A stretch of DNA of 64,000 bases from Escherichia coli (GCA_902500055.1 GCA_902500055.1_4131.1); one strand, 5' to 3'; shown: positions 1 to 64,000, counted from the stretch's first letter. Numbers and translations are program-made. Notes: generated by a model not told the origin, from the letters alone.

Positions 1-2
1 CT

Positions 3-839
3 AATACTTTCCAACAAGGATATACTGACTGGGCTGTGTATTTCACTGGTATAGATGTTACCCAAATTAAAAAAATGTTATGTGGTTATACAGCATTTAC
101 ATTAATGAAAGACGGAACACTTTATGGAAGAGGATGGAATCGAAGTGGTTCATTAGGTTTAGGACATAAAAATTATGTTTCAGCGTGGACTGTACTTGAC
201 ACTAATGTGGATAATATATTTGGCGGTTACCTTGGCGATACATTGTTTAAGATTAAAAACGATGGAACTGTATATGGTTCAGGTTCAAATAACAGCTTTC
301 AAGTTAAAGCAACATCGGGTGATGCAACCACATTTGTTCCGTTGTTTGATGATATATCTTATGATATAAAATGCAGTTTTGTTTCTGGTGTTGGTTTTGT
401 AATGATAACATCTGATAATAAAATATATGCAACTGGAACTACTTTTGCTGGTAGTGGTGCACATAGTAAAGTTTTTGATGTTGGTTTTACTATAGGTGAT
501 ATGAGTAATATATATCATCCTGATTCGTTGGACTATTCGACTAGTGTTGTATTTTTAATTAATGCAGATACAAACAAACTAATAGCAACTGGGCATACCC
601 CATTTACGGGAAGTAGTTCAAGTTCCCTTCCATATTTTACAGCATTTCAAGAATTCAATTTTACATCGTTCAATTCGAATACACGATATAGTGGGTCTTT
701 ATACTGGAATACATTTTACGAAGGTAATAATGTATGGATGAATGGATATAATCCTAAAAATACGGGTGGAAAGAATTTCTCATTGTGTTCAATACCGTTA
801 GATACTATTATTACTAAGCAAATTGATTTACCTTTTTGA
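3..839 (+). CDS. RCC1-like beta-propeller repeat protein, 5' end cut by the window edge (array paralog 1)
   Basis: The frame is open from nt 3. It has RCC1-type glycine repeats (GWNRSGSLGLGHKN, GSGSNNSFQV) and a C-terminal ...QIDLPF like the other paralogs. Confidence 0.8.
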   Translation, partial: NTFQQGYTDWAVYFTGIDVTQIKKMLCGYTAFTLMKDGTLYGRGWNRSGSLGLGHKNYVSAWTVLDTNVDNIFGGYLGDTLFKIKNDGTVYGSGSNNSFQVKATSGDATTFVPLFDDISYDIKCSFVSGVGFVMITSDNKIYATGTTFAGSGAHSKVFDVGFTIGDMSNIYHPDSLDYSTSVVFLINADTNKLIATGHTPFTGSSSSSLPYFTAFQEFNFTSFNSNTRYSGSLYWNTFYEGNNVWMNGYNPKNTGGKNFSLCSIPLDTIITKQIDLPF

Positions 840-846
840 ATACTAT

Positions 847-911
847 GCCAGTACTCAAGTACTGGCTTTTATTTTTGATTAAATATAGTATAATGAATAA
901 AGGAGGGAAAT
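847..911 (+). promoter_or_regulatory. Intergenic cassette: terminator hairpin, conserved TATAAT box and SD
   Basis: Hairpin gccagtactcaagtactggc (847-866) plus a T-run, then TAAATATAGTATAATGAATAAAGGAGG. TATAAT lies at 889-894 and the ATG at 912. Confidence 0.75.
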
Positions 912-2105
912 ATGTTACCTTTTGCTAGAATGGTTAAATACGGGAATAAACTGCCTATTCCTGATCCAGTTGAGTTCACTGATGTTTTACAGCAACATTA
1001 TACTAATGCTATGTATCTACATAAGCCCACGAATACACTATACGGTTATGGTGGTAATAACTTGAGCCAATTAGGTCTAGGGAATCGATCGGCAGTTTCT
1101 ACTTTTACAGTACTGGCAACGCACTGTGCAGCCTTTTGGTTAGGCGTTCATGGATCATTGATGATTGACTTGGATAATAGAATATATTTCACAGGGAATA
1201 CAGTAGCATTCCCCGATTATGGAGATGCAACTCCAGTTAATGGTTATTTTAGAACATGGACTGATGTTACTGCCGCATTTAACAAAATAAATGTACACGC
1301 TAATTTAATCAAGAGTGTACATATAGGTGAAAGTACTAGAATATTACTACACGATGGAAGAGTCGTTGTTTGTGGTAAAAATGCAAATGCCGAATGTGGA
1401 ACAGGTAACCAAAATCCCATTCCAGTACTAACAGTTGTTACTGGTATGGGTGAAGTTTCTCAATTGGCGTGTTCATTACAGGGTACGCACTATCTCAAAA
1501 CAAATAAAGAAGCATGGTTTTGTGGTAAGGATAACTTTGGTGAAAGTGGTGGTGGGACTAGCTCATACGTTTTTACTAATAAATTAATACGAACCAACGT
1601 CGATTATATAAGTACTACTTATGATGTTACCTGGTGGTTTACTGCCGGTAGGGTGTACTGGAGTGGTAGAAACAATTCTGGACAAGCTGGGAATGGTACT
1701 ACTTCAACTACAAACCAATTAACTACAGTTCAGAATTCACAGGTTATAGTGAATATTAGTGATGGTTTCCTGTGTCCTAGTAATATGGGTAACTCAACAA
1801 TTGGTGCACCTATGGCTCAATACCCATCATATGTCAGGAGTGCAGGCATCAATACATATGGTCAAGAAGGGACGGGAAATACAACAATAATTACTTCGTG
1901 GGGGGCGTTTTCTTTAAGTGCGATACAGGGTGGATATGACAATGTTCTTATGGCATCCAAAGACTGGTCCAGAACAATAATTATAACTAAAGATTATAAA
2001 TTATATGCATGTGGGGGCTTTAACGGTTCAGGTAGTAAATTACCGGATGGTACTTACTTAATTAAAACATTAACATTAATGCCAACGCAGTTATGGCAAT
2101 CATAG
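912..2105 (+). CDS. RCC1-like repeat protein with MLPFARMVKYGN leader (paralog 2)
   Basis: Contains GGNNLSQLGLGNRS, GRNNSGQAGNGTTS and GINTYGQEGTGNT repeats. A strong SD lies upstream. Confidence 0.85.
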   Translation: MLPFARMVKYGNKLPIPDPVEFTDVLQQHYTNAMYLHKPTNTLYGYGGNNLSQLGLGNRSAVSTFTVLATHCAAFWLGVHGSLMIDLDNRIYFTGNTVAFPDYGDATPVNGYFRTWTDVTAAFNKINVHANLIKSVHIGESTRILLHDGRVVVCGKNANAECGTGNQNPIPVLTVVTGMGEVSQLACSLQGTHYLKTNKEAWFCGKDNFGESGGGTSSYVFTNKLIRTNVDYISTTYDVTWWFTAGRVYWSGRNNSGQAGNGTTSTTNQLTTVQNSQVIVNISDGFLCPSNMGNSTIGAPMAQYPSYVRSAGINTYGQEGTGNTTIITSWGAFSLSAIQGGYDNVLMASKDWSRTIIITKDYKLYACGGFNGSGSKLPDGTYLIKTLTLMPTQLWQS

Positions 2106-2114
2106 GAGAAAATC

Positions 2115-3224
2115 ATGTTACCTTTTGTTAGAATGTTTGATTATGGGAATATCACACCTGGTCCTAAAAATATAATTAAAGTTGGTGCTTCTACACAGGG
2201 TCAATTCTTATTGACAGATTCACATGATTTATATTACATAGGTAGAAATCAAGGTGGTGAATCTGGAAATGGAAATACCAACACAGTATCCTCATGGATA
2301 TTAGTAAGTACAGATGTTTCTAATTTTTTCGTGGGTGATCGTACACTTGTTATTATTAAAAATGATAATACGATATGGTCATCAGGTCAAACGTACTGGT
2401 TCACATCTTCCACAACTACTTCTTACAGTACTGTATTAGTTGATAGAACCAGTTGGTTCACAAATGCAATACCAGTAAGTGAAATTGCTAATATTGTATG
2501 TACATATGGTTTAATATTTGTACTTAGCACTAATTCAGTACTCTATGGTGCAGGGGCTAATGGATATCGTGGTGCTTTAGGTATTGGTTCATCATCAATT
2601 TACACATTAACTCAATGTGCTACTAATGTGCGTAAAGTAATGACGAATTCAAATGACAGTATGTATATTACATTAGATAATAAGTTATATAGTTCTGGGT
2701 GGAATGACAGGGGTCAGCATGGCACGGGGAACCGAACACAAATTAACACGTGGGGATTACGTAGTACTGGAGTAATAGATGCAGCTATTGGTGGACATAC
2801 ACTCAATTACTATAATGGTACATCATATTTCACATGTGGTACAACTCCAAACTTTCTTAGTTCAGATTCAACTACATTCAAAGCAGTTCCTGTAAGTACT
2901 TTACCTAATAATTCACCTTTGTTTATGACAAATTCAGAGGCAACAAGCACGGCTACGCAAATTATATTAACTAGTGCATATCAGAAAGGTATTGGGGGAA
3001 ACCGTGGTTTGGGATTAAACAATTCTCAAACGGGTGCTATCTATAGTGCTGCTAATTTACAATTACCTGTAGAAGTTAGTGAGATTAGTGATGTTGCTTT
3101 TAGTGACGGATTAACATCATTATTAACCAAAGACGGGAATGTATATAGTACTGGATCGTATTACGCCATTCCAGGTGCAAGTGCAGATGTTGCAGTCTTT
3201 ACTAAAATTGATTTACCAAAATAA
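2115..3224 (+). CDS. RCC1-like repeat protein with MLPFVRMFDYGN leader (paralog 3)
   Basis: Contains GWNDRGQHGTGNRT and GANGYRGALGIGSS repeats. It is joined to paralog 2 only by a GGAG SD, so the two form an operon. Confidence 0.85.
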   Translation: MLPFVRMFDYGNITPGPKNIIKVGASTQGQFLLTDSHDLYYIGRNQGGESGNGNTNTVSSWILVSTDVSNFFVGDRTLVIIKNDNTIWSSGQTYWFTSSTTTSYSTVLVDRTSWFTNAIPVSEIANIVCTYGLIFVLSTNSVLYGAGANGYRGALGIGSSSIYTLTQCATNVRKVMTNSNDSMYITLDNKLYSSGWNDRGQHGTGNRTQINTWGLRSTGVIDAAIGGHTLNYYNGTSYFTCGTTPNFLSSDSTTFKAVPVSTLPNNSPLFMTNSEATSTATQIILTSAYQKGIGGNRGLGLNNSQTGAIYSAANLQLPVEVSEISDVAFSDGLTSLLTKDGNVYSTGSYYAIPGASADVAVFTKIDLPK

Positions 3225-3230
3225 CATAAT

Positions 3231-3295
3231 GCCAGTACTCAAGTACTGGCATTTCTTTTTGGGGTAAATATAGTATAATGAATAAAGGAGGAATT
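3231..3295 (+). promoter_or_regulatory. Intergenic cassette: terminator hairpin, conserved TATAAT box and SD
   Basis: Hairpin gccagtactcaagtactggc (3231-3250), TATAAT at 3274-3279, AAAGGAGG, ATG at 3296. Confidence 0.75.
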
Positions 3296-4465
3296 ATGTT
3301 ACCTTTTGTGAGATTGTTTGATTACGGGAATATTGCACCTGATAAACCAAATATTAAAAAAATACTTGCTAACAACTATAATGTTGCTGTTTTAACAAAC
3401 AGTGGTGATTTATATGTGCGTGGTGATAATGCATATGGTATTTTGGGTTTAGGTCACAAAAATACTGTTACTACATGGACTTTTAGTACTTCTGGTGTTG
3501 AAGATTTTTGGATGGGAGCCACGTCGATAGTTGTTAAGAAAAGCAATAATGAAATATGGTACAGTGGAAGTTCAACAACTGTTGGTATGAAAGGGTCAGG
3601 AGTATCAATATGGACATCTGCTATGCCTATATTCAATACATTAACATTACCAATATTAGATATAGCCGTTAGTTATCAGACTACAAGTGTGTTACTATCA
3701 GACCAAACAATATGGAGTACTGGAGTAGGGTCGGATGGTCAGTTGGGTGATGGGACAACAATTAACCATGTTTCTGGTAGATTCGTCAAAAGTACTGTTC
3801 CTACCGCAGCAAATCAATTACCTGTTAAATTGTTTGCAAGTAATTTAATGCACGGTTATGTTACAAACCAAGGATGGTTATTTTATACAGGAAGAGTCAA
3901 TGCAGTTACAAGTTCAGGAAGTAAGTTATATAATATATATTATGGTGCTCCTACCAGCTTAAGTAATACAATTAATATAAAGTACTATGTGAATAATGGT
4001 ACTTCAATGGCAATGGCAATAGGCACTGATCCCACTGGTAAAACTATCATCGCAAATGGTGGTTCAAGAATATTTGGTGCACAAGCAGATGGGAAAGATG
4101 GTTCTCTCAAAGATTATAGAGCATTTGAGGTACAAACAGCATCACTAATGCCACCTGGTGATGTAGTAAGCATTGCTAACAATACTTCATATTATAACCA
4201 AGTTATTGCTACAACAGATGGTATATATTGTTGCGGCTACAATCAATCTACACAAGCTGGTATGTTAGGTATTGGTACATCTACTAATGCATTAGTATAT
4301 ACCAAAGCAATCGTACCTGATGGGTTTGATTATAGTAAGTCACAGATGGCAGGTAGTTATAACCGAACTTATATAACTGATGGTAATTTTGTATATAGCA
4401 CGGGAACAGATGTCACATATGGTGGCATTAGTAGTTTAGAATTTATATTAGATTCGCCAGTTTAA
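3296..4465 (+). CDS. RCC1-like repeat protein with MLPFVRLFDYGN leader (paralog 4)
   Basis: The start was moved to the MLPF ATG because the track ATG lies inside the SD box. Contains GDNAYGILGLGHKN and GSDGQLGDGTT repeats. Confidence 0.85.
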   Translation: MLPFVRLFDYGNIAPDKPNIKKILANNYNVAVLTNSGDLYVRGDNAYGILGLGHKNTVTTWTFSTSGVEDFWMGATSIVVKKSNNEIWYSGSSTTVGMKGSGVSIWTSAMPIFNTLTLPILDIAVSYQTTSVLLSDQTIWSTGVGSDGQLGDGTTINHVSGRFVKSTVPTAANQLPVKLFASNLMHGYVTNQGWLFYTGRVNAVTSSGSKLYNIYYGAPTSLSNTINIKYYVNNGTSMAMAIGTDPTGKTIIANGGSRIFGAQADGKDGSLKDYRAFEVQTASLMPPGDVVSIANNTSYYNQVIATTDGIYCCGYNQSTQAGMLGIGTSTNALVYTKAIVPDGFDYSKSQMAGSYNRTYITDGNFVYSTGTDVTYGGISSLEFILDSPV

Positions 4466-4471
4466 ATATAG

Positions 4472-4536
4472 GCCAGTACTTGATACTGGCTTTTCTTTTT
4501 TGTATTAAATATAGTATAATGAATAAAGGAGGAAAT
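4472..4536 (+). promoter_or_regulatory. Intergenic cassette: terminator hairpin, conserved TATAAT box and SD
   Basis: Hairpin gccagtacttgatactggc (4472-4490), TATAAT at 4515-4520, ATG at 4537. Confidence 0.75.
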
Positions 4537-5727
4537 ATGTTACCTTTTGCAAGAATGATGAATTATGGGAATATTGTGCCTGTACCACTACAAATTAAGA
4601 AAATAATACCAACTGATACTGAGGTTGTTGTACTTTATACCGACGGTCAACTATACGCACGAGGCAGTAATAGTTATGGGAAGTTTGGTAGAGGAAATAA
4701 TAATGCAGTAAGGTCGTGGACATTAATTAGAGAAAATGTCAAAGATTGCTGGATGACACAAGGAACTTTGTTAGTACAAGATAATGACTTAAATTATTTT
4801 TATTGTGGATATGGTAGTCATATTGGTTTAGAAACTAGTACTACATCATTTTTAAGTTATAACCAATATATTGAAAATTTGTACACACAAAGTTCAAGTA
4901 CTTCAATTAAACAGATGTATGCAGGTACTACGTGGTTTACTTTCTTAATGGATAATAATACAATATGGAGTACAGGGTGGAATAGTGCTAGACAATTCGC
5001 AGATGGTACAGGAACTACTTATCAAATATCAGATGGTTCATTTGTTAAAGCGGTAACACCAGATGTAGATATTGCACAAATACAGTCAACAAATTACTGT
5101 GCAATGTTTTTTGATACACAAAATAATTTATATATTGGTGGTAGTACATCTGGCATAAGTACTAGTACCACATGGACACCATTTAATGAATATACTTTGT
5201 ATAAGCCAAGTACCACATATACAAAAACATTACAATATACTGTTTGTTCATTTGGTGCTGTCAGTGCTTTAGTGGAGAATCCAAATACAGGAGCACGTCA
5301 GTTTCTAGTTGGTGGATTAGCTAATAATGGGGCATGGGGTAATAACACTACGAATAGTACAGCACTAGCAGTATTAGGGAATAATAGTACTACATTACCA
5401 TCAGGAACTTATTATTCAATCCATACTGGATATGCATCACAATCTAGTATACTAGTTACGAGTACAGGTGTATATGCAACTGGTTTAAATGCGAGTGGTT
5501 ATGCTGGTACATTAGGTGTTGGTTCTAATGTTACCATTGGTAAATTTACTGCATGTCCATTGCCGTCAGGAATAACATATTCTATGTATGATAAAATTAA
5601 AATATATCGCGGTTCGTATCGTACTTTCCTAACTGCTGATATGAAAAATATATATTCAACCGGAACGCATGATGATGGTGGTCCTCGTACAAATAGATAT
5701 GTACTGGATACTCCAAGACAGTTATAA
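4537..5727 (+). CDS. RCC1-like repeat protein with MLPFARMMNYGN leader (paralog 5)
   Basis: Contains GSNSYGKFGRGNNN and GLNASGYAGTLGVGSN repeats. The start was set at the MLPF ATG. Confidence 0.85.
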   Translation: MLPFARMMNYGNIVPVPLQIKKIIPTDTEVVVLYTDGQLYARGSNSYGKFGRGNNNAVRSWTLIRENVKDCWMTQGTLLVQDNDLNYFYCGYGSHIGLETSTTSFLSYNQYIENLYTQSSSTSIKQMYAGTTWFTFLMDNNTIWSTGWNSARQFADGTGTTYQISDGSFVKAVTPDVDIAQIQSTNYCAMFFDTQNNLYIGGSTSGISTSTTWTPFNEYTLYKPSTTYTKTLQYTVCSFGAVSALVENPNTGARQFLVGGLANNGAWGNNTTNSTALAVLGNNSTTLPSGTYYSIHTGYASQSSILVTSTGVYATGLNASGYAGTLGVGSNVTIGKFTACPLPSGITYSMYDKIKIYRGSYRTFLTADMKNIYSTGTHDDGGPRTNRYVLDTPRQL

Positions 5728-5733
5728 TATAAT

Positions 5734-5799
5734 GCCAGTACAGAGTACTGGCTTTTCTTTTTTGTATTAAATATATTATAATGAATAAAGGAGGGAATT
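5734..5799 (+). promoter_or_regulatory. Intergenic cassette: terminator hairpin, conserved TATAAT box and SD
   Basis: Hairpin gccagtacagagtactggc (5734-5752), TATAAT at 5777-5782, ATG at 5800. Confidence 0.75.
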
Positions 5800-6537
5800 A
5801 TGTTACCTTTTGGAAGAATGGTTAAGTACGGGAATAAAATTGAATATAAGCCACATGGTGAACAATTAATCACGACAATAGGAACAACACAATTTACAGT
5901 TCCTGCTGGCGTTACCGAAATATCAGTATGTGTTATTTCGCCGGGTGGTCAACGTGGTGCTGGTGGCGGCTTATCGTGGCGTAATAATATTCCGGTTACT
6001 AGTGGTGAGTACTTAAGTGTTTCTCTTACACATCCCAACACTACTACACCAGTTGAAAACGGTTTATATCGTGGAACTGAAAAACTATGTGTTAGCTTCA
6101 CTGGTGAATATAGGGTTGGTGGACTAGGTGGGAAAGCTGCTAACGCTATTAATGATGGTGGTGGTAATGGGGGCAACGCTGGTGTAAGTGGTGGTGCAGT
6201 CATTGGTGGTGGTGCTGGTGGCTACACTGGTAAAGGTGGTAACGGAGATGCAATCACTGGTGAAAATGGTGCTGGCGGCGGCGGTGGTGGTGGTGCATTC
6301 TATAATACCTCGTTCATTGGTACGGGTGGTGGTACTGGTATCATTGTTCAAGGTGCTAATGGCATTGGCGGTAGATACGATGGTTCATATAATGGTGGTG
6401 CTGGTAGTGGTGGTGCTGGTAAGATGTATGGTGGTGGTGGTAGTATATGGGATAATTTTTCTTATACGGCTGCTGGTGGTGGTGCTGTGCGAATAATATG
6501 GGGACGTGGGAGATATTATCCTAACAATTCAGTCTAA
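5800..6537 (+). CDS. Glycine-rich domain protein with the same MLPFGRMVKYGN leader (array member 6, not RCC1)
   Basis: Begins FTVPAGVTEISVCVISPGG, continues with long GGxGG tracts and ends GGGAVRIIWG. This is the layout of glycine-rich-domain proteins. Confidence 0.8.
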   Translation: MLPFGRMVKYGNKIEYKPHGEQLITTIGTTQFTVPAGVTEISVCVISPGGQRGAGGGLSWRNNIPVTSGEYLSVSLTHPNTTTPVENGLYRGTEKLCVSFTGEYRVGGLGGKAANAINDGGGNGGNAGVSGGAVIGGGAGGYTGKGGNGDAITGENGAGGGGGGGAFYNTSFIGTGGGTGIIVQGANGIGGRYDGSYNGGAGSGGAGKMYGGGGSIWDNFSYTAAGGGAVRIIWGRGRYYPNNSV

Positions 6538-6544
6538 AATATAG

Positions 6545-6608
6545 GCCAGTACAGAGTACTGGCTTTTCTTTTTGTATTAAATATAGTATAATGAATAAAG
6601 GAGGAAAT
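6545..6608 (+). promoter_or_regulatory. Intergenic cassette: terminator hairpin, conserved TATAAT box and SD
   Basis: Hairpin gccagtacagagtactggc (6545-6563), TATAAT at 6587-6592, ATG at 6609. Confidence 0.75.
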
Positions 6609-7718
6609 ATGTTACCTTTTGGGAGAATGTTAAAGTACGGGAATATAGCACCTGAAGATCCAAAGATAAAGAAAGTACTGTGCGGTCTTGATAATTTGTA
6701 CGTCCTCTATGGCGATGGCTCACTTTATGGTTGTGGGGTTAATACTTATTTTCAGTTAAACGTTGAAAATACAGCAACAAGAAATACTTGGATATTAATT
6801 TCAGAAGGTGTTACTGATGCATGGGCTGGGGCGTACAATATTCTTTATCTCAAGGGTGAAGAATTCATAATGCATGGAGTTACCACACAATTAGGCACAG
6901 GAAATACTACGATTCCGTTGGGTGGTTTGAATGTTACTTCTTCATTTCCACATATATCTAATATTAAAATGATATCAATTGGTGTAGATACAATGCACTA
7001 CGTTGATGCTAGTGGTTCGATTGTTTATGGTAGAGGCATGAATGGTAACTATTCACTCGGTGGTGGGTATTCCACGGCTCAGAGTACTTTTGTTTCAGTT
7101 ATTAATACCGGAGCTAATACAGTCCTTGATATATTGGGTACACAGAATAACACATTAATATTAACATCAAATGGTGAACTTCTCGGTTGTGGGAGTAGTG
7201 GGTATGGTTCACTTGGCGTAAGTCCAGGACAGTATACTACACTAGTAAGCAGGTTAACCAGTGTTAAACTGTTTGGTGGTAACAGTACTGGTACTCTTGC
7301 TTATTCAGCCAGCAATATATACAACGCAGGTTGGCAGTATATTGGTCAACTTGGTAACGGTATTACAACGAACACACAAGTATATCCATTTGCATTTAAC
7401 TCCACTACTATTGATAGTAAGATACATAAAATATCAAAATCAAGTGCGACTTCATATGTTAATATGTACGCAACAACCGAAGGAAAGATATACAGTACTG
7501 GTGAATTTGGTAGAAATGGTTCTGGTGGTGGTTTGAGTAGATTCACCAATACACTAACTTTAGATAATTACAACCCAGAAAAATCAGCATTATACACATG
7601 TGCACATTTTAGTATAGTATTTGATGGTAATAATCAAATTTATGCTTGTGGTTCTTTTTTGTATGTGCCAGGTCCTATTACCACGAACTCATGGTCTGCA
7701 ATTACAATGCCGAAATAA
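6609..7718 (+). CDS. RCC1-like repeat protein with MLPFGRMLKYGN leader (paralog 7)
   Basis: Contains GVNTYFQLN, GMNGNYSLGGG and GSSGYGSLG repeats. The start was set at the MLPF ATG. Confidence 0.85.
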   Translation: MLPFGRMLKYGNIAPEDPKIKKVLCGLDNLYVLYGDGSLYGCGVNTYFQLNVENTATRNTWILISEGVTDAWAGAYNILYLKGEEFIMHGVTTQLGTGNTTIPLGGLNVTSSFPHISNIKMISIGVDTMHYVDASGSIVYGRGMNGNYSLGGGYSTAQSTFVSVINTGANTVLDILGTQNNTLILTSNGELLGCGSSGYGSLGVSPGQYTTLVSRLTSVKLFGGNSTGTLAYSASNIYNAGWQYIGQLGNGITTNTQVYPFAFNSTTIDSKIHKISKSSATSYVNMYATTEGKIYSTGEFGRNGSGGGLSRFTNTLTLDNYNPEKSALYTCAHFSIVFDGNNQIYACGSFLYVPGPITTNSWSAITMPK

Positions 7719-7732
7719 TACTATAAAACTAT

Positions 7733-7796
7733 GCCAGTACTTTGTACTGGCTTTCTTATTTGTATTAAATATAGTATAATGAATAAAGGAGGAATT
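7733..7796 (+). promoter_or_regulatory. Intergenic cassette: terminator hairpin, conserved TATAAT box and SD
   Basis: Hairpin gccagtactttgtactggc (7733-7751), TATAAT at 7775-7780, ATG at 7797. Confidence 0.75.
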
Positions 7797-8966
7797 ATGT
7801 TACCTTTTGGAAGAATGTTAAAGTACGGAAATATTAAACCAACTCTTCCCGAAATAAAGAAATTGGATGGTAGTCAATTACATGTCGGATTACTTTATAG
7901 TACAGGGAATATGTATATGCGTGGTTCTGGATCGAACTACAAATTAGGAACAGGGAATGATAGTGATGTATTAGGTGGTTGGGTACATGTACCCTATGAA
8001 GTTGATGATTTTTGGGCGTGTGTATCCGGTACATTAATAAAGACGGTTGATAATAAGTTATATTGTGCCGGACTATACATGGGTGGATATTTTGGGGCTA
8101 GTGGTTCATATGTTAACTGGACTGAAGTAACTTCATTATTTGTAGGTATTGACGTGTCGCAAATAAAGAATATAGAATTTACGTCAGCAGGTACGTCAGG
8201 TAGTACACTAATATTGATGTTAGATGGTCGTTTATATGGGTTCGGTATGAACAGTAGATCTGAGTTAGGTGTTAATAACAAAGTTGTATCTCCCATTCTT
8301 ATAGATACTGGGGTAAGTGAAATAGGAGCACATAAGTTAGGCGGTTCATCGTTCCATTATATAAAAGGCGGTAAGTACTACAGATGTGGAACATCGGTTG
8401 GTAGTAATATTGGAAGTTCTTCTTTAACTACTTTTACGGTATTGAGTATTCCTGATAACGTTATATCTATGCAAATTTTATATGACAACGTACAGTTATT
8501 ATGTTTAGGAAGTTCTGGATATAGTATCTATATGGCTGGTTCTAATGATTATGGTGGAAGAGGTGTTGGTGGTTCTACTGTTTACACTACATTCAGGAAA
8601 ATAGATCTTACAGGATTTGGTGTTGTTCCCAGTGAAATACTATTTGAAAATGCCGGAAATGGTTATGTTAATATATCAACTGATAGTACTGGAGTATATA
8701 CATGTGGTGGTGGAGCGGGTGTTAACGGTTTAGGTAGACCAACTAATGTAATACCAAGTTCACAGTTGGGGGTAGTTCAGTTCAGTACTGGAGTAGAACA
8801 ATCAAATATAAGTCGTGTGTATTCACAGAGTTCGAGTTCTGTTATATATTGTATAGTCAATAATGAATTGTACTGGGCTGGGAGTAATTCATATTTTACT
8901 GATCAAACCACAAATACTGGTACACAATTTTCATTTATTAAGATGAAGAATATGCCTTCTGCTTAG
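7797..8966 (+). CDS. RCC1-like repeat protein with MLPFGRMLKYGN leader (paralog 8)
   Basis: Contains GSGSNYKLGTGN, GMNSRSELGVNN and GSNDYGGRGVGG repeats. Confidence 0.85.
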   Translation: MLPFGRMLKYGNIKPTLPEIKKLDGSQLHVGLLYSTGNMYMRGSGSNYKLGTGNDSDVLGGWVHVPYEVDDFWACVSGTLIKTVDNKLYCAGLYMGGYFGASGSYVNWTEVTSLFVGIDVSQIKNIEFTSAGTSGSTLILMLDGRLYGFGMNSRSELGVNNKVVSPILIDTGVSEIGAHKLGGSSFHYIKGGKYYRCGTSVGSNIGSSSLTTFTVLSIPDNVISMQILYDNVQLLCLGSSGYSIYMAGSNDYGGRGVGGSTVYTTFRKIDLTGFGVVPSEILFENAGNGYVNISTDSTGVYTCGGGAGVNGLGRPTNVIPSSQLGVVQFSTGVEQSNISRVYSQSSSSVIYCIVNNELYWAGSNSYFTDQTTNTGTQFSFIKMKNMPSA

Positions 8967-8973
8967 ATTTTAT

Positions 8974-9037
8974 GCCAGTACTTAACACTGGCTTTTCTTT
9001 TTGATTAAATATAGTATAATGAATAAAGGAGGATTTT
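8974..9037 (+). promoter_or_regulatory. Intergenic cassette: terminator hairpin, conserved TATAAT box and SD
   Basis: Imperfect hairpin gccagtacttaacactggc (8974-8992), TATAAT at 9015-9020, ATG at 9038. Confidence 0.7.
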
Positions 9038-10243
9038 ATGTTACCTTTTCCAAGGATGTTAAAATACGCAAATAAAATGAAAGTTCCTGAAGTGAAAGAA
9101 ATCTTTATGTACAATGGTTATAGTGCGTCAGTTATTCCAGCAACAGCACTCTTACTATTATATAAAAATGGAGACTTAATGGGTATAGGTGGAACTAGTT
9201 CACAAAACTATGGATTCGGAAATGGTGTACCTAATGCGAAAGTAAAAGAGTGGGCTTTAATATACCAAAATGTAAAACGTTTTAGAACAGCCCAAGGTTC
9301 TTTTAATTTAATCCAAACCGAAGATAATAAATTTTATTACAGTGGCGTAGGTAGAGCTATTGGTACAGGATTAAGTACTGTCAGTACTTATACTGATTGT
9401 ACTTCATATTTTACATCAGTATTCAATGCAACACAATTGTCGCAAATTAAGGACATTCAAATTGTAGGGGAGGGTATTTTTGTTTTACTTCAAAATGGTA
9501 CGCTATATGGAATGGGGGCCAATACACAGGGATATTTTGGTAATAACACAACCACAAGATTATCAACATTTACTTCAATTAATACGAATGTGGATAGTGT
9601 AAAAACAGGTTCAAGTGCAGTGATTGTGCAGAAAATTGATAAAACACTTTGGGTCACTGGTCAAAACACATGGGGTTCACTTGGTATAAGTAATGGTGAA
9701 ACTAACATTAGAGTATGGACACAAATGGGTGCATTAGCCAACAATACTGTTATACATTATGAACTTGGTGGGAGTGCATCATGGGTTGTATCTAAACACA
9801 ACACGAATAATACATATACAGTTCGTGCAAGTGGGATTCAATCGGAAGGTAACTTGGGTAATAGTTCAGCCGCTTCATCAGGGACAGTATTATCTACAAT
9901 CTCCACTCTACCAATATCAGATAATATGGAAATGAAATCAAATTCATTAACATATGGTGGGCTTACGGTTAAAACTAACAATTCACTTTATATGTGTGGT
10001 ATAAACACATATGGTAGGCTCGGTCGCGGTAATACCACATCAAGTACTACATTTGTAGTTCCAGTTGATGCACCTAAAGTTGGCAGCATCGAGTTATTCT
10101 GTCCAAGTGAATGTACAAATGTGTATATGGATAATCAAGGGGATGTGTATTTGAGTGGCTATATCCCACAAGCAGCAGGGACAACAGTTTCTGATTACTA
10201 CACTAAATTCCAATTATATCAAATACCCAGTCGTGGTATATAA
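9038..10243 (+). CDS. RCC1-like repeat protein with MLPFPRMLKYAN leader (paralog 9)
   Basis: Contains GANTQGYFGNN, GQNTWGSLGISNG and GINTYGRLGRGNTT repeats. Confidence 0.85.
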   Translation: MLPFPRMLKYANKMKVPEVKEIFMYNGYSASVIPATALLLLYKNGDLMGIGGTSSQNYGFGNGVPNAKVKEWALIYQNVKRFRTAQGSFNLIQTEDNKFYYSGVGRAIGTGLSTVSTYTDCTSYFTSVFNATQLSQIKDIQIVGEGIFVLLQNGTLYGMGANTQGYFGNNTTTRLSTFTSINTNVDSVKTGSSAVIVQKIDKTLWVTGQNTWGSLGISNGETNIRVWTQMGALANNTVIHYELGGSASWVVSKHNTNNTYTVRASGIQSEGNLGNSSAASSGTVLSTISTLPISDNMEMKSNSLTYGGLTVKTNNSLYMCGINTYGRLGRGNTTSSTTFVVPVDAPKVGSIELFCPSECTNVYMDNQGDVYLSGYIPQAAGTTVSDYYTKFQLYQIPSRGI

Positions 10244-12123: not shown

Positions 12124-12147
12124 ATCCAGTACTTAATAGTACTGGAT
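12124..12147. other. 10-bp perfect hairpin ATCCAGTACT-taat-AGTACTGGAT
   Basis: Inverted repeat read directly from the sequence. The T-run lies only on the + side, so its role as a minus-strand terminator is doubtful. Confidence 0.5.
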
Positions 12148-12890: not shown

Positions 12891-13259
12891 CTAACCTCGT
12901 TTACGTTTTTTAATTGTACTGTGCATCTTTTCGAAATAGGGAACCAAAACATATTGAACAGTTTGCCAGATAACCATTAGATTATGCACTGCACCACCAA
13001 GGATACCAAACACTAGAACAATAATTGCCATAATAGGATCACCGTCTACCATACCCCATTTAAAGATATGTAAAATCCAAGCAATGACTAGACAAAATAA
13101 ACTAAGCCAATACGTAATGAAAAATCCGGCTTGTAGTTCATAATCATCAGCAATTTCATCGTATACCGTTTCTAAAAATGATACACAAAAGAATTTACCA
13201 ATTATAACCACAGTACTAATAAACAACATAGCAGTTAAGATAATAAGAGCAATTTCCAT
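12891..13259 (-). CDS. Small multi-pass membrane protein (TM family, cluster 1)
   Basis: Hydrophobic segments with a basic tail ...STIKKRKRG. Confidence 0.7.
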   Translation of the reverse strand: MEIALIILTAMLFISTVVIIGKFFCVSFLETVYDEIADDYELQAGFFITYWLSLFCLVIAWILHIFKWGMVDGDPIMAIIVLVFGILGGAVHNLMVIWQTVQYVLVPYFEKMHSTIKKRKRG

Positions 13260-13573
13260 TACATCCCTCGTTTACGCTTTTGATTGCGTCTAAATTCTGT
13301 TAGTCCACGGCTAATCGGCGGCATCAGACTACATAAAAAAGTAACAGTTGTTGGTAGTAACATCAAGTCAATCATTGCAGTGTTATCTGGTGGATCAAAA
13401 ACCAAAAAATACACACAAGAAACACTAATAATGGTTGAACCGATAAAAGGAATACAAAATTCTTTTATCTGTTTTTCAACATAATCAAACATCTTGAGTA
13501 CAAATAAAAATCCAACCCAACACATAATGAAATAGAATGAATACAACGTGTAAATCAATGTTACTATATCCAT
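13259..13573 (-). CDS. Small multi-pass membrane protein (TM family, cluster 1)
   Basis: Hydrophobic with tail ...RRNQKRKRGM. It has a 1-nt start/stop overlap with both neighbours. Confidence 0.7.
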   Translation of the reverse strand: MDIVTLIYTLYSFYFIMCWVGFLFVLKMFDYVEKQIKEFCIPFIGSTIISVSCVYFLVFDPPDNTAMIDLMLLPTTVTFLCSLMPPISRGLTEFRRNQKRKRGM

Positions 13574-13911
13574 TAGTACCTCGCATCAGGAACTTTAGCA
13601 CGTAACTTATGAACGACTGGGAACAACAACAAACTTACATATGCAATAGTTGAACCCCAATAGAATACTAATACAATTGGTTCACCATTAGAACGGAAAC
13701 CTCTACTAATCATTGAGTAGTGAATAATAGGCATAATCATCGCCATACCAAACCATGCGTGTAATTTTAATTGCAGCATGTTATCAGCGATGAATACTGA
13801 AATTGGTCGTTTAAAGAACCACATCAGAAAGTAGAATCCAGCACTAATAATATAGTACATGGTACTAACTTTCATATACCACGGCAGTAAATCAATAAAG
13901 TACTCCATCAT
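13573..13911 (-). CDS. Small 3-TM membrane protein (TM family)
   Basis: WFFKRP motif after TM1. Tail ...HKLRAKVPDARY. Confidence 0.75.
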   Translation of the reverse strand: MMEYFIDLLPWYMKVSTMYYIISAGFYFLMWFFKRPISVFIADNMLQLKLHAWFGMAMIMPIIHYSMISRGFRSNGEPIVLVFYWGSTIAYVSLLLFPVVHKLRAKVPDARY

Positions 13912-14255
13912 TCCTCCGGTATCTTATTTCGAAGTTCAATCATAACACAACAAATTTTAATGGTCAATATAAAAGTTAAACATATCATCCCAAGTGTGCC
14001 GTAAACTGCGGAAAAAGCTGGTAGTACCTTTCCTGTGAGTGTTGCTACAATACATGCAATCAATGTTGATGCAAACAACGATTGATTAATGGCAGAATTC
14101 ATAAAATCTTCACCATTACGTTTATAGAATTGTCGTTTAAAATACCATCCTAGAAACATAACTACCCAAAATGATACATAAGTTGTTAGAATAATCCCTG
14201 CAAGTGAATGTGCAACTGAACTACTCCTTAAAAACTCAAGATAAGCTTCAAACAT
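13908..14255 (-). CDS. Small 3-TM membrane protein (TM family)
   Basis: WYFKRQ motif, tail ...ELRNKIPEE, ATGA overlap with the neighbour. Confidence 0.75.
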   Translation of the reverse strand: MFEAYLEFLRSSSVAHSLAGIILTTYVSFWVVMFLGWYFKRQFYKRNGEDFMNSAINQSLFASTLIACIVATLTGKVLPAFSAVYGTLGMICLTFILTIKICCVMIELRNKIPEE

Positions 14256-14593
14256 TAGAAGTCTCCGCGAATTTTATCTCTACCATGAATAATGAGATGG
14301 ATTAAGTATACAACTAACCAAATGAACAACCCAAAGAATACAATATATTGTGAGATTGAGTTCAAGTGAGGATTGGCACAATAAATTAAGTGTGCCATAA
14401 GACCAACAATTGCAAACAAACCTTGAACTAGTGTGTAAAGAACTAGTGATGAATTCCTTACTGGATACAGTTTAAAAACAATTTTCTTTTTAAAATACCA
14501 CAGTACTACAACCAGTGCATGATAAAAGAAAAAACCAAACAGATAAATCAAAGTAATACTAATCATTGTATCTGAATTAAAAAACTCAAGCAT
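14255..14593 (-). CDS. Small 3-TM membrane protein (TM family)
   Basis: WYFKKK motif. Tail ...HGRDKIRGDF. Confidence 0.75.
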   Translation of the reverse strand: MLEFFNSDTMISITLIYLFGFFFYHALVVVLWYFKKKIVFKLYPVRNSSLVLYTLVQGLFAIVGLMAHLIYCANPHLNSISQYIVFFGLFIWLVVYLIHLIIHGRDKIRGDF

Positions 14594-14622
14594 ATCGTAT
14601 CTCCGGTGGTGAATATTAAGTT

Positions 14623-14651
14623 ATAGTACTACCATAGTGTAGTACTGTCAA
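14623..14651 (-). promoter_or_regulatory. Sigma-70-type promoter TTGACA-N17-TACTAT
   Basis: The reverse complement reads TTGACAgtactacactatggtagTACTAT, upstream of the TM gene cluster. Confidence 0.6.
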
Positions 14652-14660
14652 TACATGTAA

Positions 14661-15434
14661 TTAAATTTTCTCAAGGAACATATTCTCTGCCATTGATTCC
14701 CAATCGTATGGGAATTTATTATACAAACCAGCGATCAGTACTGGCATACGCAGTGATGGACTACGCAAACGTTCTTCGTTGTTCAGCATCCAATTCAGGA
14801 TTGCTTTACAACCATTTTTGTTAACACCATTGTTTTCAAGGATGTTAGTTTTGTTCATGATGTTCTCAATGTGAATCATCACTTCTTCGTTGGTGAACAG
14901 TTGCAGGTCAACAAAGATACTACGAGTGATCAGTGCATCGATGTGTGGTGCTAAGCTGCTTTTACCTTTAGCAATCTGTGACAGGTTTTTGTTAGTCAGA
15001 AAGATTACTTTACCACGGAATTCAAACTGCTTAGGGATACCCTGCTGTTCCAGGTACTTAGCAGAAGTCGCGTAAGAAACTACACGCTTCTCTGACGTAT
15101 CCAACACAGCTTTAAGCAAATCAATATTAGTCTCGTCAGAGAAGATATCAACGTCATCAAGTAACAGTACTGATGCGGCATGACGTGAACGATACAGTGC
15201 TTCGTACAGACCCAAAGTAGTTACTTTACCACTGATTTTCTTGTAGTCGATTTCAAAGTTATCATCAGCTTTCTGTAACCGTTGGTCAACGTTATAAGTT
15301 TTACCAACACCACCTTTACCTGATACGATCAGAGAGTTGATAGAGTTAGCTTGTGTATCAAGAAGGCATTCCAGTGCAGCCATCATGCTATTGAAGTTTT
15401 TTTCGATTTGGATTGCTTTCTCTTGACGGGTCAT
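14661..15434 (-). CDS. P-loop NTPase (AAA-like ATPase)
   Basis: Walker A VSGKGGVGKT and Walker B VLLLDDVD. The SD AAGGAGA precedes the ATG. Confidence 0.8.
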   Translation of the reverse strand: MTRQEKAIQIEKNFNSMMAALECLLDTQANSINSLIVSGKGGVGKTYNVDQRLQKADDNFEIDYKKISGKVTTLGLYEALYRSRHAASVLLLDDVDIFSDETNIDLLKAVLDTSEKRVVSYATSAKYLEQQGIPKQFEFRGKVIFLTNKNLSQIAKGKSSLAPHIDALITRSIFVDLQLFTNEEVMIHIENIMNKTNILENNGVNKNGCKAILNWMLNNEERLRSPSLRMPVLIAGLYNKFPYDWESMAENMFLEKI

Positions 15435-51448: not shown

Positions 51449-51486
<38 letters not shown>

Positions 51487-51543: not shown

Positions 51544-51956
<413 letters not shown>

Positions 51957-51968: not shown

Positions 51969-52129
<161 letters not shown>

Positions 52130-52133
<4 letters not shown>

Positions 52134-52294
52134 ATTCGTACCATTAGTTCAATTAAGTACTTTTTATATTCTGGGTCGTTGATAAGTTTATCATACAGAT
52201 GCAACTTTGAAATGAATTCCCAATGATACTTTAGCCATTTACCAATACCTGCATATCTAAAATTAATATCATTCATCCATTCTTCATGCGTCAT
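52130..52294 (-). CDS. MTHEEW micro-protein, 54 aa
   Basis: My own translation is MTHEEWMNDINFRYAGIGKWLKYHWEFISKLHLYDKLINDPEYKKYLIELMVRI. ATGA coupling at both ends. Confidence 0.65.
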
Positions 52295-52455
52295 ATTCGT
52301 ACCATTATTTCAATAAAGAACCACGGATACACTTCATGATTTATAAGTTTATCGTATTCTGCTGGGTCTGATATAATCTCCCAATGATATTTTCGCCAAT
52401 TACCTATGCCGGAGTATCTGAACTTTAGTTCACTTAACCATTCTTCATGGGTCAT
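52291..52455 (-). CDS. MTHEEW micro-protein, 54 aa
   Basis: My own translation is MTHEEWLSELKFRYSGIGNWRKYHWEIISDPAEYDKLINHEVYPWFFIEIMVRI. Confidence 0.65.
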   Translation of the reverse strand: MTHEEWLSELKFRYSGIGNWRKYHWEIISDPAEYDKLINHEVYPWFFIEIMVRI

Positions 52456-52489: not shown

Positions 52490-53032
<543 letters not shown>

Positions 53033-56224: not shown

Positions 56225-56247
56225 ATACCCAGTACTTGACTGGGTAT
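56225..56247 (-). terminator. Rho-independent terminator
   Basis: ATACCCAGT-caagt-ACTGGGTAT followed by TTTTTTT on the minus sense. Confidence 0.75.
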
Positions 56248-62377: not shown

Positions 62378-62419
62378 ATATGCACCTATGAAAAATCCAC
62401 GCATTGCGTGGATTTGTAA

Positions 62420-62950
62420 TTATTCAAGTATAGTAATTTCAATTAAACGAATTTCGATAAACTCGTTTTCAGTTTCCCATGACGTGCCAAATTTCTTTTC
62501 AAGTTCAGATTTCACATCACTTTTAAATTTTCCCATAGTATTAGGAATAATTTGTTTGGTTAATTTGTCGTAACCACAATAAAACATAGGTTTCTCCCTT
62601 CGAGATATTAGCTGAACAAAATCTTTTGGATATGCAGGTATGTTATGCATCACTTCATGAATACACTCAGTACTTGAATCTTGTACTTTGTACATTACAT
62701 TAAGTTTACCTCTGAAATTTGCGGTCATATCAACAATAGTTCCTTTACCCGATTTAAGTAAAGTTCCATTCTTTGAATGAGAGCAATAAAATACCTCATC
62801 ACCAATATTAGGATAATACAAATTAAATTCTAATTCAGATTTTACAGCCAGACGTTTGAAACTTTCTGCACGTTTTATATAAGTTTGGTGTTTGTTTATG
62901 TTCAAAAGAATATATCTCGTAGTAAGTGTGATATAACTGGCATAGTCCAT
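62420..62950 (-). CDS. Hypothetical protein
   Basis: Intact 176-aa ORF. Its first 49 nt overlap the methyltransferase 3' end. Confidence 0.65.
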   Translation of the reverse strand: MDYASYITLTTRYILLNINKHQTYIKRAESFKRLAVKSELEFNLYYPNIGDEVFYCSHSKNGTLLKSGKGTIVDMTANFRGKLNVMYKVQDSSTECIHEVMHNIPAYPKDFVQLISRREKPMFYCGYDKLTKQIIPNTMGKFKSDVKSELEKKFGTSWETENEFIEIRLIEITILE

Positions 62951-63762
62951 CCATTCCCAAGCATTTTGTATGCTTGTGTTGAACTACTAACTTTGAAGTA
63001 GTTTACATCAATTCCTTGCAACATGCAACACTCTTGTACTGTTAAATGACGATAGTCCACATTTCGCTTACCATGTTCAATAAGGAAATCCCTATCGATA
63101 TCAGGTTCTTTGAAAACAATTTGTCTTCTTGATTTATTAAAGTACTGGTTACAATCACCACCTTTAAAATAGTTAGCATCTATACAGTACGAAGCGGTTC
63201 TGTCAGTGTACCAACCATCTTCAATAATATCTTGAAGTTTAGGTGCATTGGATAATGCAGGTGGTATAAAAAGCTTATCAGTACTGTACCAGTAATATCT
63301 CTGCCTGAAGTGAGGCGTATAATGCTGGGAGTTTATCAGTACTGGTGCAACACCAATCTCTTTGTTGAATATATCCAATGATTCTTTTTTCATTTTAACA
63401 TTCTCAAACAAAAAATTCAAATTGGGATTTAAACTTTTTATGTGATTGAAAATGTCCATCATTGTGTAAAATAACATACTACGTGGATCTTGTAATCCTA
63501 ATTGTTTCCCAGCCGTTGATAGTCCTTGACATGGACTACCCCCGATAAGTAAATCAATTTTATCCCACTCAATATCCCATTCTCTCCATTTAGTTACATC
63601 ACCCAATTGGGTGATATCAGGAAAGTTAGCTTGGGATTCAGCTATTGCGTACTTGTCAATTTCGGATGAATAATATTTTTCAACAGGGATGCCAGCATCT
63701 TTTAATGCCATGTATCCCACACTCATCCCATTAAAAAGAGATAGTACTCGGATAGGTTTCAT
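62902..63762 (-). CDS. DNA (cytosine-5)-methyltransferase
   Basis: Motif I LFNGMSVG, motif IV GGSPCQGLS, motif VI FENVKM, motif VIII FRQRYYW, motif X LGNGWTMPV. Confidence 0.9.
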   Translation of the reverse strand: MKPIRVLSLFNGMSVGYMALKDAGIPVEKYYSSEIDKYAIAESQANFPDITQLGDVTKWREWDIEWDKIDLLIGGSPCQGLSTAGKQLGLQDPRSMLFYTMMDIFNHIKSLNPNLNFLFENVKMKKESLDIFNKEIGVAPVLINSQHYTPHFRQRYYWYSTDKLFIPPALSNAPKLQDIIEDGWYTDRTASYCIDANYFKGGDCNQYFNKSRRQIVFKEPDIDRDFLIEHGKRNVDYRHLTVQECCMLQGIDVNYFKVSSSTQAYKMLGNGWTMPVISHLLRDIFF

Positions 63763-63814
63763 ATAAAATCCTTTTTATATTGTTAAGGTACTATAATATA
63801 TTATAGCATCTTAT

Positions 63815-64000
63815 TTAGAAATCTTCCAAACTTTTTTCATCACACCATCGTGATGTACAGATGATTGCAGATGCCATAATTGAAGCACTTGCACGTCCTC
63901 CACCGAGTAAGTACTGGCTAATTACACCAATCATATTGAACACTTTATCATACTCGGTTAGTTGTTCAAAACCTTTCTTCCAATGCTGATATTCTTCTTC
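63815..64000 (-). CDS. Hypothetical protein, 3' end only (gene continues beyond the window)
   Basis: The frame is open from the window edge and reads ...EEEYQHWKKGFEQLTEYDKVFNMIGVISQYLLGGGRASASIMASAIICTSRWCDEKSLEDF with its stop at 63815. Confidence 0.5.
   Translation of the reverse strand, partial: EEEYQHWKKGFEQLTEYDKVFNMIGVISQYLLGGGRASASIMASAIICTSRWCDEKSLEDF

Follow-up and report, generated by a model that had tools for sequence, protein, structure and literature searches.

The palindromic hexamer AGTACT is present in 193 copies in a 64,000-nucleotide stretch of DNA from assembly GCA_902500055.1 (the whole of which is hereafter called the window), compared with 21.9 copies expected from base composition (0.34 per kb), an 8.8-fold excess. 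A megablast search assigned the window to an Escherichia coli jumbo phage of the Asteriusvirus group (121Q, PBECO4, phAPEC6, G17/Sharanji), with 95–98% identity to its Asteriusvirus relatives across most of its length and several variable islands. Comparison with known systems suggests that AGTACT is a lineage-specific highly iterated palindrome (HIP) of the RaK2/121Q-like jumbo phages (hereafter the clade), and that its closest known counterpart is the cyanobacterial palindrome HIP1. It is not HIP1 itself, yet it shows every testable defining feature of this kind of element. Clade genomes are ~350 kb in length, and contain roughly a thousand copies of the word each. The original prediction, made from the sequence alone, had recognized the strong enrichment and knew of no described role for the motif; likewise, we found no description of it in the literature on 121Q, phAPEC6, Sharanji, fEgEco12, CBB, RaK2 and PA5oct, or in a comparative jumbo-phage survey.

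AGTACT is enriched independently of coding

The palindrome excess that marks HIP-type elements is at least 10-fold; the values found were 62-fold for the octamer CAGTACTG in the window (39 copies against 0.63 expected) and, for the hexamer, 8.8-fold in the window and 7.0-fold in a pooled clade set (357 kb from four genera, comprising the window, L001–L004 and L018–L020). AGTACT ranked first of all hexamers in the window under both Markov-0 and Markov-3 models, and CAGTACTG was the top octamer under the order-3 model. Regional counts made by eye in the original prediction (18 copies in 1–4500, 4 in 15001–16000, 6 in 16001–17000 and 4 in 17041–18000) proved exact, as did its expectation of 0.34 per kb. 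The maximal-order Markov-4 null gave an excess of only 1.26-fold, but this null is over-conditioned, because it takes as given the counts of AGTAC and GTACT, which the motif itself inflates.

Gene calling yielded 122 genes in the window, and a codon-aware null was constructed by shuffling synonymous codons within each gene. The genes contained 154 sites, compared with 43.3 ± 5.9 after shuffling (3.6-fold, z = 18.7), and all three codon phases were enriched (69/37/48 observed versus 24.5/6.5/13.0 shuffled, or 2.8-, 5.7- and 3.7-fold). Site density was 2.83 per kb in coding and 4.05 per kb in intergenic DNA, so that the coding-independent excess typical of HIP-type elements was seen against the codon null, in the three phases and outside genes. 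The site had been described as frequent in open reading frames (ORFs), which is borne out by these numbers; a fall of the ratio to about 1, for example with all sites in a single phase, had been named as the alternative outcome under such a null, and the excess survived. The proposal that selection acts on the DNA itself, and not through codon usage, is supported by the persistence of the excess under codon shuffling, in each phase and outside genes, and by the conservation of sites in the Asteriusvirus TH47 (see below). In five other clade loci the excess over the synonymous shuffle was 2.9–4.2-fold (z 9.5–21), whereas the same null erased the palindrome excesses of outgroup phages (ACCGGT and GGTACC in locus L031, CTGCAG in MIJ3).

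The excess might be a by-product of codon or dipeptide usage, paralogous repeats, a small mobile element, or promoter and terminator consensus sequences alone. Phase 0 (AGT-ACT, Ser-Thr) is indeed the most frequent phase, an array of RCC1-repeat genes in the window copies its terminators, and the Markov-4 ratio is low. However, the codon null clears the outgroup excesses but not that of AGTACT, all three phases are enriched, density is still 2.9 per kb outside the paralogous array, flanking conservation extends for one base only, and promoter and terminator sites make up ~10% of the total. Explanations of this type therefore have a negligible probability, and are essentially excluded.

The trait defines a single phage lineage

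AGTACT was the top hexamer, with 4.4–10-fold enrichment, in other parts of 121Q, in TH47, ECO103, RaK2 and a second Klebsiella phage, and also in GAP32, CBB, Serratia phage BF and Xanthomonas phage XaC1. The host of XaC1 lies outside the Enterobacterales, and the enrichment in this phage is equally strong. IMG/VR was scanned with the terminase as query, and the AGTACT ratio was recorded for each locus. The nine loci with a terminase of at least 64% identity showed 5.0–8.1-fold enrichment, compared with 0.28-fold for a locus at 60% identity (L031) and a pooled 0.65-fold (maximum 1.9) for 70 loci at 41–46% identity. Other phages were depleted: the PA5oct-like phage MIJ3 contained 1 copy versus 8.8 expected (0.1-fold), a T4-like coliphage 4 versus 13.8, and a phi92-like coliphage 0 versus 33 in 100 kb. 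E. coli K-12 contained 6 copies versus 23.2 expected in 100 kb (P = 2.5e-5).

The excess (5–10-fold) is thus lineage-wide, covering four genera of the International Committee on Taxonomy of Viruses (Asteriusvirus, Alcyoneusvirus, Mimasvirus and Eneladusvirus), XaC1 and the IMG/VR relatives, and it has a sharp boundary. This distribution shows that the trait arose once, is intrinsic to the phages, and was retained across hosts of two bacterial orders against the trend of its surroundings.

Two observations concern individual phages. XaC1 DNA (L105) has 32% GC, and is AGTACT-rich and GCGC-free like that of the enterobacterial jumbo phages; Xanthomonas genomes have ~64% GC. In the phi92-like Justusliebigvirus OZ035770.1 (L016/L017), AGTACT, GGTACC, CGTACG and GGATCC are each absent from 100 kb (12–33 expected), suggesting that other coliphages are under strong restriction pressure at AGTACT.

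Clade genomes otherwise avoid palindromes and lack GCGC

The original prediction started from the rule that phages deplete short palindromes, and the clade follows this rule unusually strictly in words other than AGTACT. AGTACT, in turn, is under-represented in E. coli and in other coliphages. In the pooled clade set, 19 of the 64 six-base palindromes were absent, including CAGCTG, CTGCAG, CTCGAG, GAGCTC, GCATGC, GCTAGC, AGGCCT, TCCGGA and CGTACG (8.5–32 expected each), and most others containing G or C were strongly depleted. After AGTACT, the next palindrome in the enrichment ranking was GTGCAC, at 2.1-fold. GGTACC was absent in Asteriusvirus, Mimasvirus and Eneladusvirus, and 2.9-fold enriched in the Klebsiella phage RaK2; KpnI, whose site is GGTACC, comes from Klebsiella.

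The tetramer GCGC was absent from the window (53 expected) and from the pooled 357 kb (~292 expected), and numbered 0 of 14 in XaC1. The loci without GCGC are the window, L001–L004, L005, L013, L018, L019 and L105. CGCG was merely 3–4-fold depleted in the clade, so the depletion is specific to GCGC. Outgroup phages have GCGC at near normal frequency (observed/expected 22/21 in MIJ3, 45/32 in L031, 39/55 in the T4-like and 30/67 in the phi92-like phage), and GCGC loss and AGTACT gain therefore share a phylogenetic boundary. Both traits arise together at one node of the tree, and both are retained in phages whose hosts span two bacterial orders. The absence of GCGC could be due to a phage-encoded GCGC nuclease or to extreme restriction avoidance. 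fEgEco12 DNA was cut as predicted by ten restriction enzymes (PMC13070987), indicating that the bases of the clade are ordinary.

A further idea, which we consider unlikely, is that these phages tell their own DNA from that of the host by sequence alone, using freedom from GCGC as a negative and AGTACT as a positive barcode, without base modification. If so, a GCGC-specific phage nuclease would shred the host chromosome (E. coli contains ~7 GCGC per kb) while sparing the phage, and AGTACT, at ~3 per kb versus ~0.06 per kb in E. coli, would bring a phage factor for protection, replication, recombination, packaging or the timing of transcription to phage DNA alone.

AGTACT is a strict six-base word

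When the sites in the window were aligned, information was confined to the core hexamer and one flanking base on either side (C at −1 and G at +1, in 46% of sites each), and was approximately zero beyond. AGTACT is therefore not a repeat element, and a mobile element, a repetitive extragenic palindromic (REP)-like sequence or a longer repeat was rejected on this ground. In Asteriusvirus, CAGTACTG is 48.6-fold enriched; a change of the outer flank leaves 11.5–14-fold, whereas any single change within AGTACT reduces the excess to 0.6–5.5-fold. In the other genera the core is invariant and the flank preference drifts, with A equal to C in Mimasvirus, Eneladusvirus and XaC1. AGTACT is thus a strict six-base duplex word with a mild flank preference only.

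Longer extensions had been described as common. The half-extended forms CCAGTACT and AGTACTGG are indeed common, but the contiguous 10-mer CCAGTACTGG has no copy in the window. Two 14-bp palindromes had also been reported; both exist, each one base away from the position given. The longest forms, the 10-mer TCAGTACTGA and the 14-mer ATTCAGTACTGAAT, cluster intergenically at 45.6–51.5 kb, and are located as follows.

17269, 45648, 45683, 48246, 48367, 49577, 50683, 51455 and 51525 (starts): the nine copies of TCAGTACTGA.
48244–48257: 14-bp perfect palindrome ATTCAGTACTGAAT, with its centre ~40 bp upstream of a TACAAT −10-like box.
48365–48378: second copy of the 14-bp perfect palindrome ATTCAGTACTGAAT.

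Recruitment of a host protein was considered, with the nucleoid-occlusion factor SlmA as an example. The SlmA-binding sequence GTGAGTACTCAC holds AGTACT as its central six bases (PMC3020112), and most members of the clade infect Enterobacterales. However, the flanks required by SlmA are absent: the 12-bp palindrome GTRAGYRCTYAC (with G1, T2, A4 and G5 essential) is not matched anywhere in the window, and 46% of sites have C at position 3, where SlmA needs a purine. In addition, the trait is equally strong in the Xanthomonas phage XaC1, and other Enterobacterales phages avoid AGTACT. SlmA recruitment is accordingly very improbable, and host-factor explanations are essentially excluded.

Distances between sites follow a Poisson pattern (coefficient of variation 0.97); the sites lie at random, at 2–3 per kb, in genes, intergenic DNA, promoter spacers and terminator stems alike. 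Among 748 sites no preferred pair distance was found, and close pairs were slightly rarer than expected (194 versus 229). Over 457 genes, site density was flat, with dips only at ribosome-binding sites and stop codons. Regular or paired spacing was therefore rejected, as was, save for these dips, a position bias within genes. A polar signal of the Chi or FtsK-orienting polar sequence (KOPS) type was also rejected, as AGTACT is its own reverse complement, and CAGTACT and AGTACTG number 60 and 76 in genes. Chi itself (GCTGGTGG) has five copies in the window, three of them within one RCC1-repeat gene, and these copies hence reflect protein sequence. A LexA-like or extended −10 reading of AGTACTGTATAAT was dismissed, since, as read from the sequence, the TG lies one base off the required register and a second half-site is absent.

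The even spread and the slight shortage of close pairs resemble a coverage requirement, and AGTACT might be a site for the replication machinery, either a preferred primase start or a preferred cleavage site of the T4-type type II topoisomerase, that is always near on either strand. A palindrome provides the same site on both strands, A|GTAC|T would suit a 4-bp staggered cut with two-fold symmetry, and clade genomes have genes for topoisomerase II subunits and for a gp61-like primase with its gp41-like helicase. On the other hand, known primases read trinucleotides and known topoisomerases are loose in their specificity, so that neither has an all-or-none six-base site; T4-like and PA5oct-like relatives, presumed to have homologous enzymes, are depleted in AGTACT; and there is no periodic or wider sequence signal around the sites. 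We regard this explanation as improbable, although it is still live.

Sites are conserved, and density outlasts position

The window was aligned to TH47 (L005), an Asteriusvirus with 85% identity over 48.9 kb. In TH47, 113 of 153 sites (74%) were intact, compared with 54% of same-phase hexamers within 30 nt, 51% of composition-matched hexamers, and 40–57% of other palindromes and one-step neighbours. Conservation above a matched background (74% versus 54%), a further feature of HIP-type elements, was thus observed. Third-codon-position identity was 87.1% in sites and 73.6% outside (p = 8e-7), meaning that these positions diverge at half the outside rate, and intergenic identity was 96.1% in sites and 88.1% outside (p = 1e-4). 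These comparisons show that each site is under weak purifying selection. A loss rate of ~0.57 of neutral would fit a weak per-site advantage giving an equilibrium excess of 3–4-fold over the codon-aware baseline.

Gain and loss are balanced, with 40 window-only and 33 TH47-only sites. At deeper divergence (68% nucleotide identity), the tail-sheath genes hold 6–9 sites each, and of the six in RaK2 only one or two recur in GAP32, CBB and BF; the latter three have most sites in common. Density is thus maintained at deep divergence, and position is not.

Turnover of this kind is also anticipated by molecular drive without function for the organism, in which a sequence-specific nuclease or repair process, or biased gene conversion in mixed infections, would turn near-cognate words into AGTACT or pass on AGTACT-bearing alleles preferentially. 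Such a process would be akin to the drive by uptake bias that has been put forward for DNA uptake sequences. In favour of drive, density is stable although individual positions are not; the weak per-site constraint matches the equilibrium excess; sites enter all tolerant contexts, including terminator stems, as do the DNA uptake sequences of Neisseria; and these phages have a T4-type recombination apparatus (UvsX/UvsY/UvsW). Against drive, substitutions at window-only and TH47-only sites touch all six positions and comprise both transitions and transversions, and no one-step neighbour of AGTACT is depleted, which disfavours a single mismatch-repair route. A very-short-patch (VSP)-like repair signature was rejected for the same reasons, as no substitution path is dominant. 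Furthermore, the fixed position in early promoters described below points to use and not drift alone, and no candidate enzyme is known. Drive, while live as a rival, appears rather unlikely.

AGTACT has a fixed position in some early promoters and recurs in terminator stems

The window contains 18 consensus promoters (TTGACa-N16-18-TATAAT), all on the gene strand. AGTACT is present in 6 of the 18, and in 4–5 of these it lies at exactly −19 to −14 (AGTACTG-TATAAT), compared with a chance expectation of ~0.05 such fixed-position promoters. Three of the fixed-position promoters are unrelated in the remainder of the spacer, and the site is kept in TH47. The location just upstream of −10 boxes that had been ascribed to many promoters therefore holds for a subset (4–5 of 18). 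Since only ~6 of the 193 sites lie in consensus promoters, a sigma-70 promoter element does not account for the word, and the fixed promoter position is a sub-use rather than an explanation. It also suggests that the reader or writer of AGTACT affects early transcription. The AGTACT-bearing promoters are as follows.

17654–17681, minus strand: early sigma-70-type promoter TTGACA-N16-TATAAT, with CAGTACTG at −20 to −13 of the spacer; the TH47 orthologue retains the site.
28002–28029, minus strand: promoter TTGACA-N16-TATAAT, in which AGTACTG immediately precedes the −10 box.
32312–32339, minus strand: promoter TTGACA-N16-TATAAT, in which CAGTACTG immediately precedes the −10 box.
31963–31991, minus strand: promoter with AGTACT overlapping the −35 hexamer (TTGACAGTACT).
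51929–51956, minus strand: promoter TTGACT-N16-TATAAT in the tRNA region, with AGTACTG adjoining the −10 box.
51449–51477, around 50685 and around 51527: related copies of the 51929–51956 promoter.
14620–14660, minus strand: promoter-like region in which two AGTACT sites (14625 and 14641) are spaced by 16 bp; one overlaps TTGACA, and four genes for small membrane proteins follow downstream.

AGTACT was correctly predicted to form both arms of terminators: 13 of 15 terminator-like hairpins in 1–13 kb have GCCAGTAC...GTACTGGC stems. Most come from one family, which was duplicated together with a set of RCC1-repeat genes. Each of these paralogues has its own TATAAT promoter and GCCAGTAC-stem terminator, and the units were thus evidently duplicated whole. 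Stems of this type account for ~10% of sites, mostly in this one family, and do not explain the word; because stem sequence is free to vary, terminator stems would gather a favoured word. The genes and hairpins are listed below.

912–10243, plus strand: array of ten RCC1-repeat (beta-propeller) paralogues of ~370–410 aa, in the plus-strand block of 1–11.5 kb.
847–866, plus strand: intrinsic-terminator-like hairpin GCCAGTACT-CA-AGTACTGGC with a T run behind it; this is the first member of a paralogous family, one of which follows each RCC1-like gene.
3228–3253, 4470–4492, 5734–5752, 6543–6565, 7733–7751 and 8974–8992: paralogous hairpins.
12124–12147, plus strand: terminator-like hairpin ATCCAGTACT-TAAT-AGTACTGGAT, at the junction of convergent gene blocks.
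56228–56244, minus strand: hairpin CCCAGT-CAAGT-ACTGGG followed by a T run, with one AGTACT inside, read from the sequence.

A phage-encoded reader is tentatively favoured

We tentatively favour a phage-encoded, two-fold-symmetric recognizer of AGTACT with specificity of the restriction/modification grade, the word being selected for its density; we consider this a good possibility, somewhat short of probable. The sharp six-base specificity is typical of restriction/modification-type enzymes rather than of transcription factors. The phage-encoded reader could be a nickase, a tightly binding protein or a modification enzyme of the orphan type, and its benefit would rise with the number of sites per genome. 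The ~50-fold contrast in site density between phage (~3 per kb) and host DNA makes AGTACT a potential self-marker, and the word might act as a barcode in this way. At −19 to −14 of some early promoters the same reader, or the methylation that it writes, may switch early transcription, while use in terminator stems would be opportunistic. The functions listed in the original prediction, such as a binding or nicking site or a modification target, appear still to be the right candidates.

Several points weigh against the favoured recognizer. Its mechanism is deduced wholly from sequence, and excess conservation with kept density would also be expected from a sequence-specific conversion drive without benefit to the phage. 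No reader protein was identified when Pfam models were applied to all 122 window proteins. Pfam found just RCC1-like repeats, HNH/NUMOD4, one C5 methyltransferase, a sigma-70 region 3/4 fragment and an AAA domain, and neither of two clade methyltransferases is supported as the reader. PHROGs families added nothing useful on the window proteins. Among the small proteins beside the extended palindromes (45–52 kb) and the other window proteins, no DNA-binding or nuclease family was found beyond HNH homing endonucleases and the sigma fragment. As regards a resident ScaI-type restriction–modification system, the 122 proteins contained no restriction endonuclease family by Pfam and only the C5 methyltransferase, in a scan that covered the window but not the remaining ~290 kb of the genome.

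The two orphan methyltransferases found across the clade genera examined are a C5 and a Dam-like enzyme. The C5 enzyme of the window (62902–63762, minus strand) is conserved across these genera, has a 51% homologue in phi92-like phages with zero AGTACT, and bisulfite data reported for RaK2 place methylation in CpG context (PMC3622015). Moreover, 5-methylcytosine in an A-m5C context would be a substrate of McrBC on K-12. Taken together, these points, the conservation included, make it unlikely that the C5 enzyme writes AGTACT. The adenine methyltransferase BF_0129 was rejected, being confined to Eneladusvirus, and the N6-adenine methyltransferase and GmrSD_N protein of the ph0011/TH47 island were rejected as variable and absent from the window.

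The only remaining methyltransferase candidate is a small Dam-family adenine methyltransferase (PF05869; 121Q gp417, RaK2 'dam'), which occurs in most of the clade genera examined and is syntenic from Asteriusvirus to XaC1 and Eneladusvirus. AGTACT may be the target of this orphan N6-adenine methyltransferase, with AGTm6ACT protecting against ScaI/Eco255I-type restriction and serving as an epigenetic self-mark, a parallel to the methyltransferase sites nested in HIP1, although we think this doubtful. The gene lies beside a cytidylyltransferase gene in Asteriusvirus, Alcyoneusvirus, Munch-like phages, Hallingskeid, XaC1/XbC2 and Eneladusvirus (42–100% identity). A strict hexamer specificity is enzyme-like, and a genome with ~1000 sites needs protection, as other coliphages and E. 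coli shun AGTACT. Characterized PF05869 enzymes, however, are GATC-specific or non-specific, and clean EcoRI, HindIII and ClaI digests of fEgEco12 rule out non-specific methylation. RaK2 is said to encode two methyltransferases only and to resist methylation-sensitive enzymes (PMC3622015), and the nested series of GTAC (2–2.5-fold), AGTACT and CAGTACTG recalls that of GATC, CGATCG and GCGATCGC in HIP1 (PMC4390886). Yet IMG/VR contigs with distant PF05869 homologues contained 64 AGTACT versus 116 expected, some of them being GATC-rich; absence of the gene from the outgroups could not be demonstrated; and protection accounts for tolerance of the word but not for a 7–10-fold excess. Regarding those contigs, GATC was 2–2.7-fold over-represented in L123, L125 and L131–L134 (~50% GC), e.g. 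129 versus 48, which is another palindrome excess co-occurring with a Dam-family methyltransferase.

Comparison with known systems

Like HIP1 (GCGATCGC), AGTACT is a short perfect palindrome, one to two orders of magnitude over-represented (PMC4390886, PMC5861425). Both occur in coding DNA in all phases and in non-coding DNA throughout a lineage, both are conserved above background with a debated function, and both have nested sub-sites (GTAC/AGTACT/CAGTACTG and GATC/CGATCG/GCGATCGC). In contrast to HIP1 proper, which is the word GCGATCGC in cyanobacteria, the word here is a different one, AT-rich rather than GC-rich, with an essential core of six bases; it belongs to a virus rather than a cell; GCGC is absent from the clade; its spacing is Poisson rather than quasi-periodic; and its genome is otherwise extreme in palindrome avoidance.

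The DNA uptake sequence (DUS) of Neisseria, the uptake signal sequence (USS) of Haemophilus and Chi are also over-represented oligomers that are held for density and tolerated in genes. The DUS often occurs as inverted pairs forming terminators, as AGTACT does here. These words differ in that they are asymmetric and are recognized on a single strand (by RecBCD or an uptake receptor), and Chi is biased in orientation; we know of no uptake or exonuclease system for the AGTACT phages. Restriction-site avoidance in phages involves the same class of word, AGTACT being the ScaI/Eco255I site, and is evident in the surrounding genome, but the sign is reversed, AGTACT being 7–10-fold up while sister lineages and other coliphages avoid it. 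The operators of P1 C1 and the stoperators of mycobacteriophages similarly reuse one short word, including in promoter spacers; they number tens of sites, asymmetric or oriented and intergenic, compared with about a thousand symmetric and mostly genic sites of AGTACT.

With AGTACT, a highly iterated palindrome would be described for the first time in a virus. The textbook rule of palindrome avoidance is reversed here in the genomes that obey it most strictly, and a dedicated protein–DNA system therefore probably exists. The HIP1 question has been open for ~30 years, and a tractable phage analogue could show what such words do; the host system is culturable, with Sharanji growing on K-12 MG1655, which makes methylomes, pull-downs, nick mapping and recoding easy. 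From the site densities of the window, ScaI and RsaI are predicted to give mean fragments of ~350 bp and ~130 bp unless the DNA is modified, while HhaI would not cut at all. The combination of AGTACT-rich and GCGC-free DNA provides a one-line metagenome diagnostic for the clade.

Other features of the window

Beyond the RCC1 array, small early-type genes form a long block on the minus strand, which includes a tRNA cluster near 48–53 kb. Downstream of the promoter-like region with two AGTACT lie four successive ~110-aa hydrophobic membrane-like proteins (13259–14593, minus strand). At a variable island (~15500–15930), TH47 holds a ~4.8-kb insertion relative to the window. The same spot in ph0011 (L021:1074–3374) is occupied by a gene annotated as N6-adenine methyltransferase, which has no Pfam match, and by one for a 401-aa GmrSD_N/DndB-like protein; both are absent from the window at ~15500–15930. 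In CRJP21 a 'restriction enzyme' is annotated there. Two further features are as follows.

34722–35351, minus strand: sigma-70 regions 3 and 4, 209 aa, with region 2 not recognizable.
52490–53014: NUMOD4/HNH homing endonuclease, near three MTHEEW paralogues.

Between the 209-aa sigma-70 fragment and a 165-aa ORF upstream of it (35709–36206) lie 357 bp in which no gene was called; the fragment could be a split or unusual early sigma factor. The three tandem 54-aa paralogues, all starting with MTHEEW (51969–52455, minus strand), adjoin the tRNA region.

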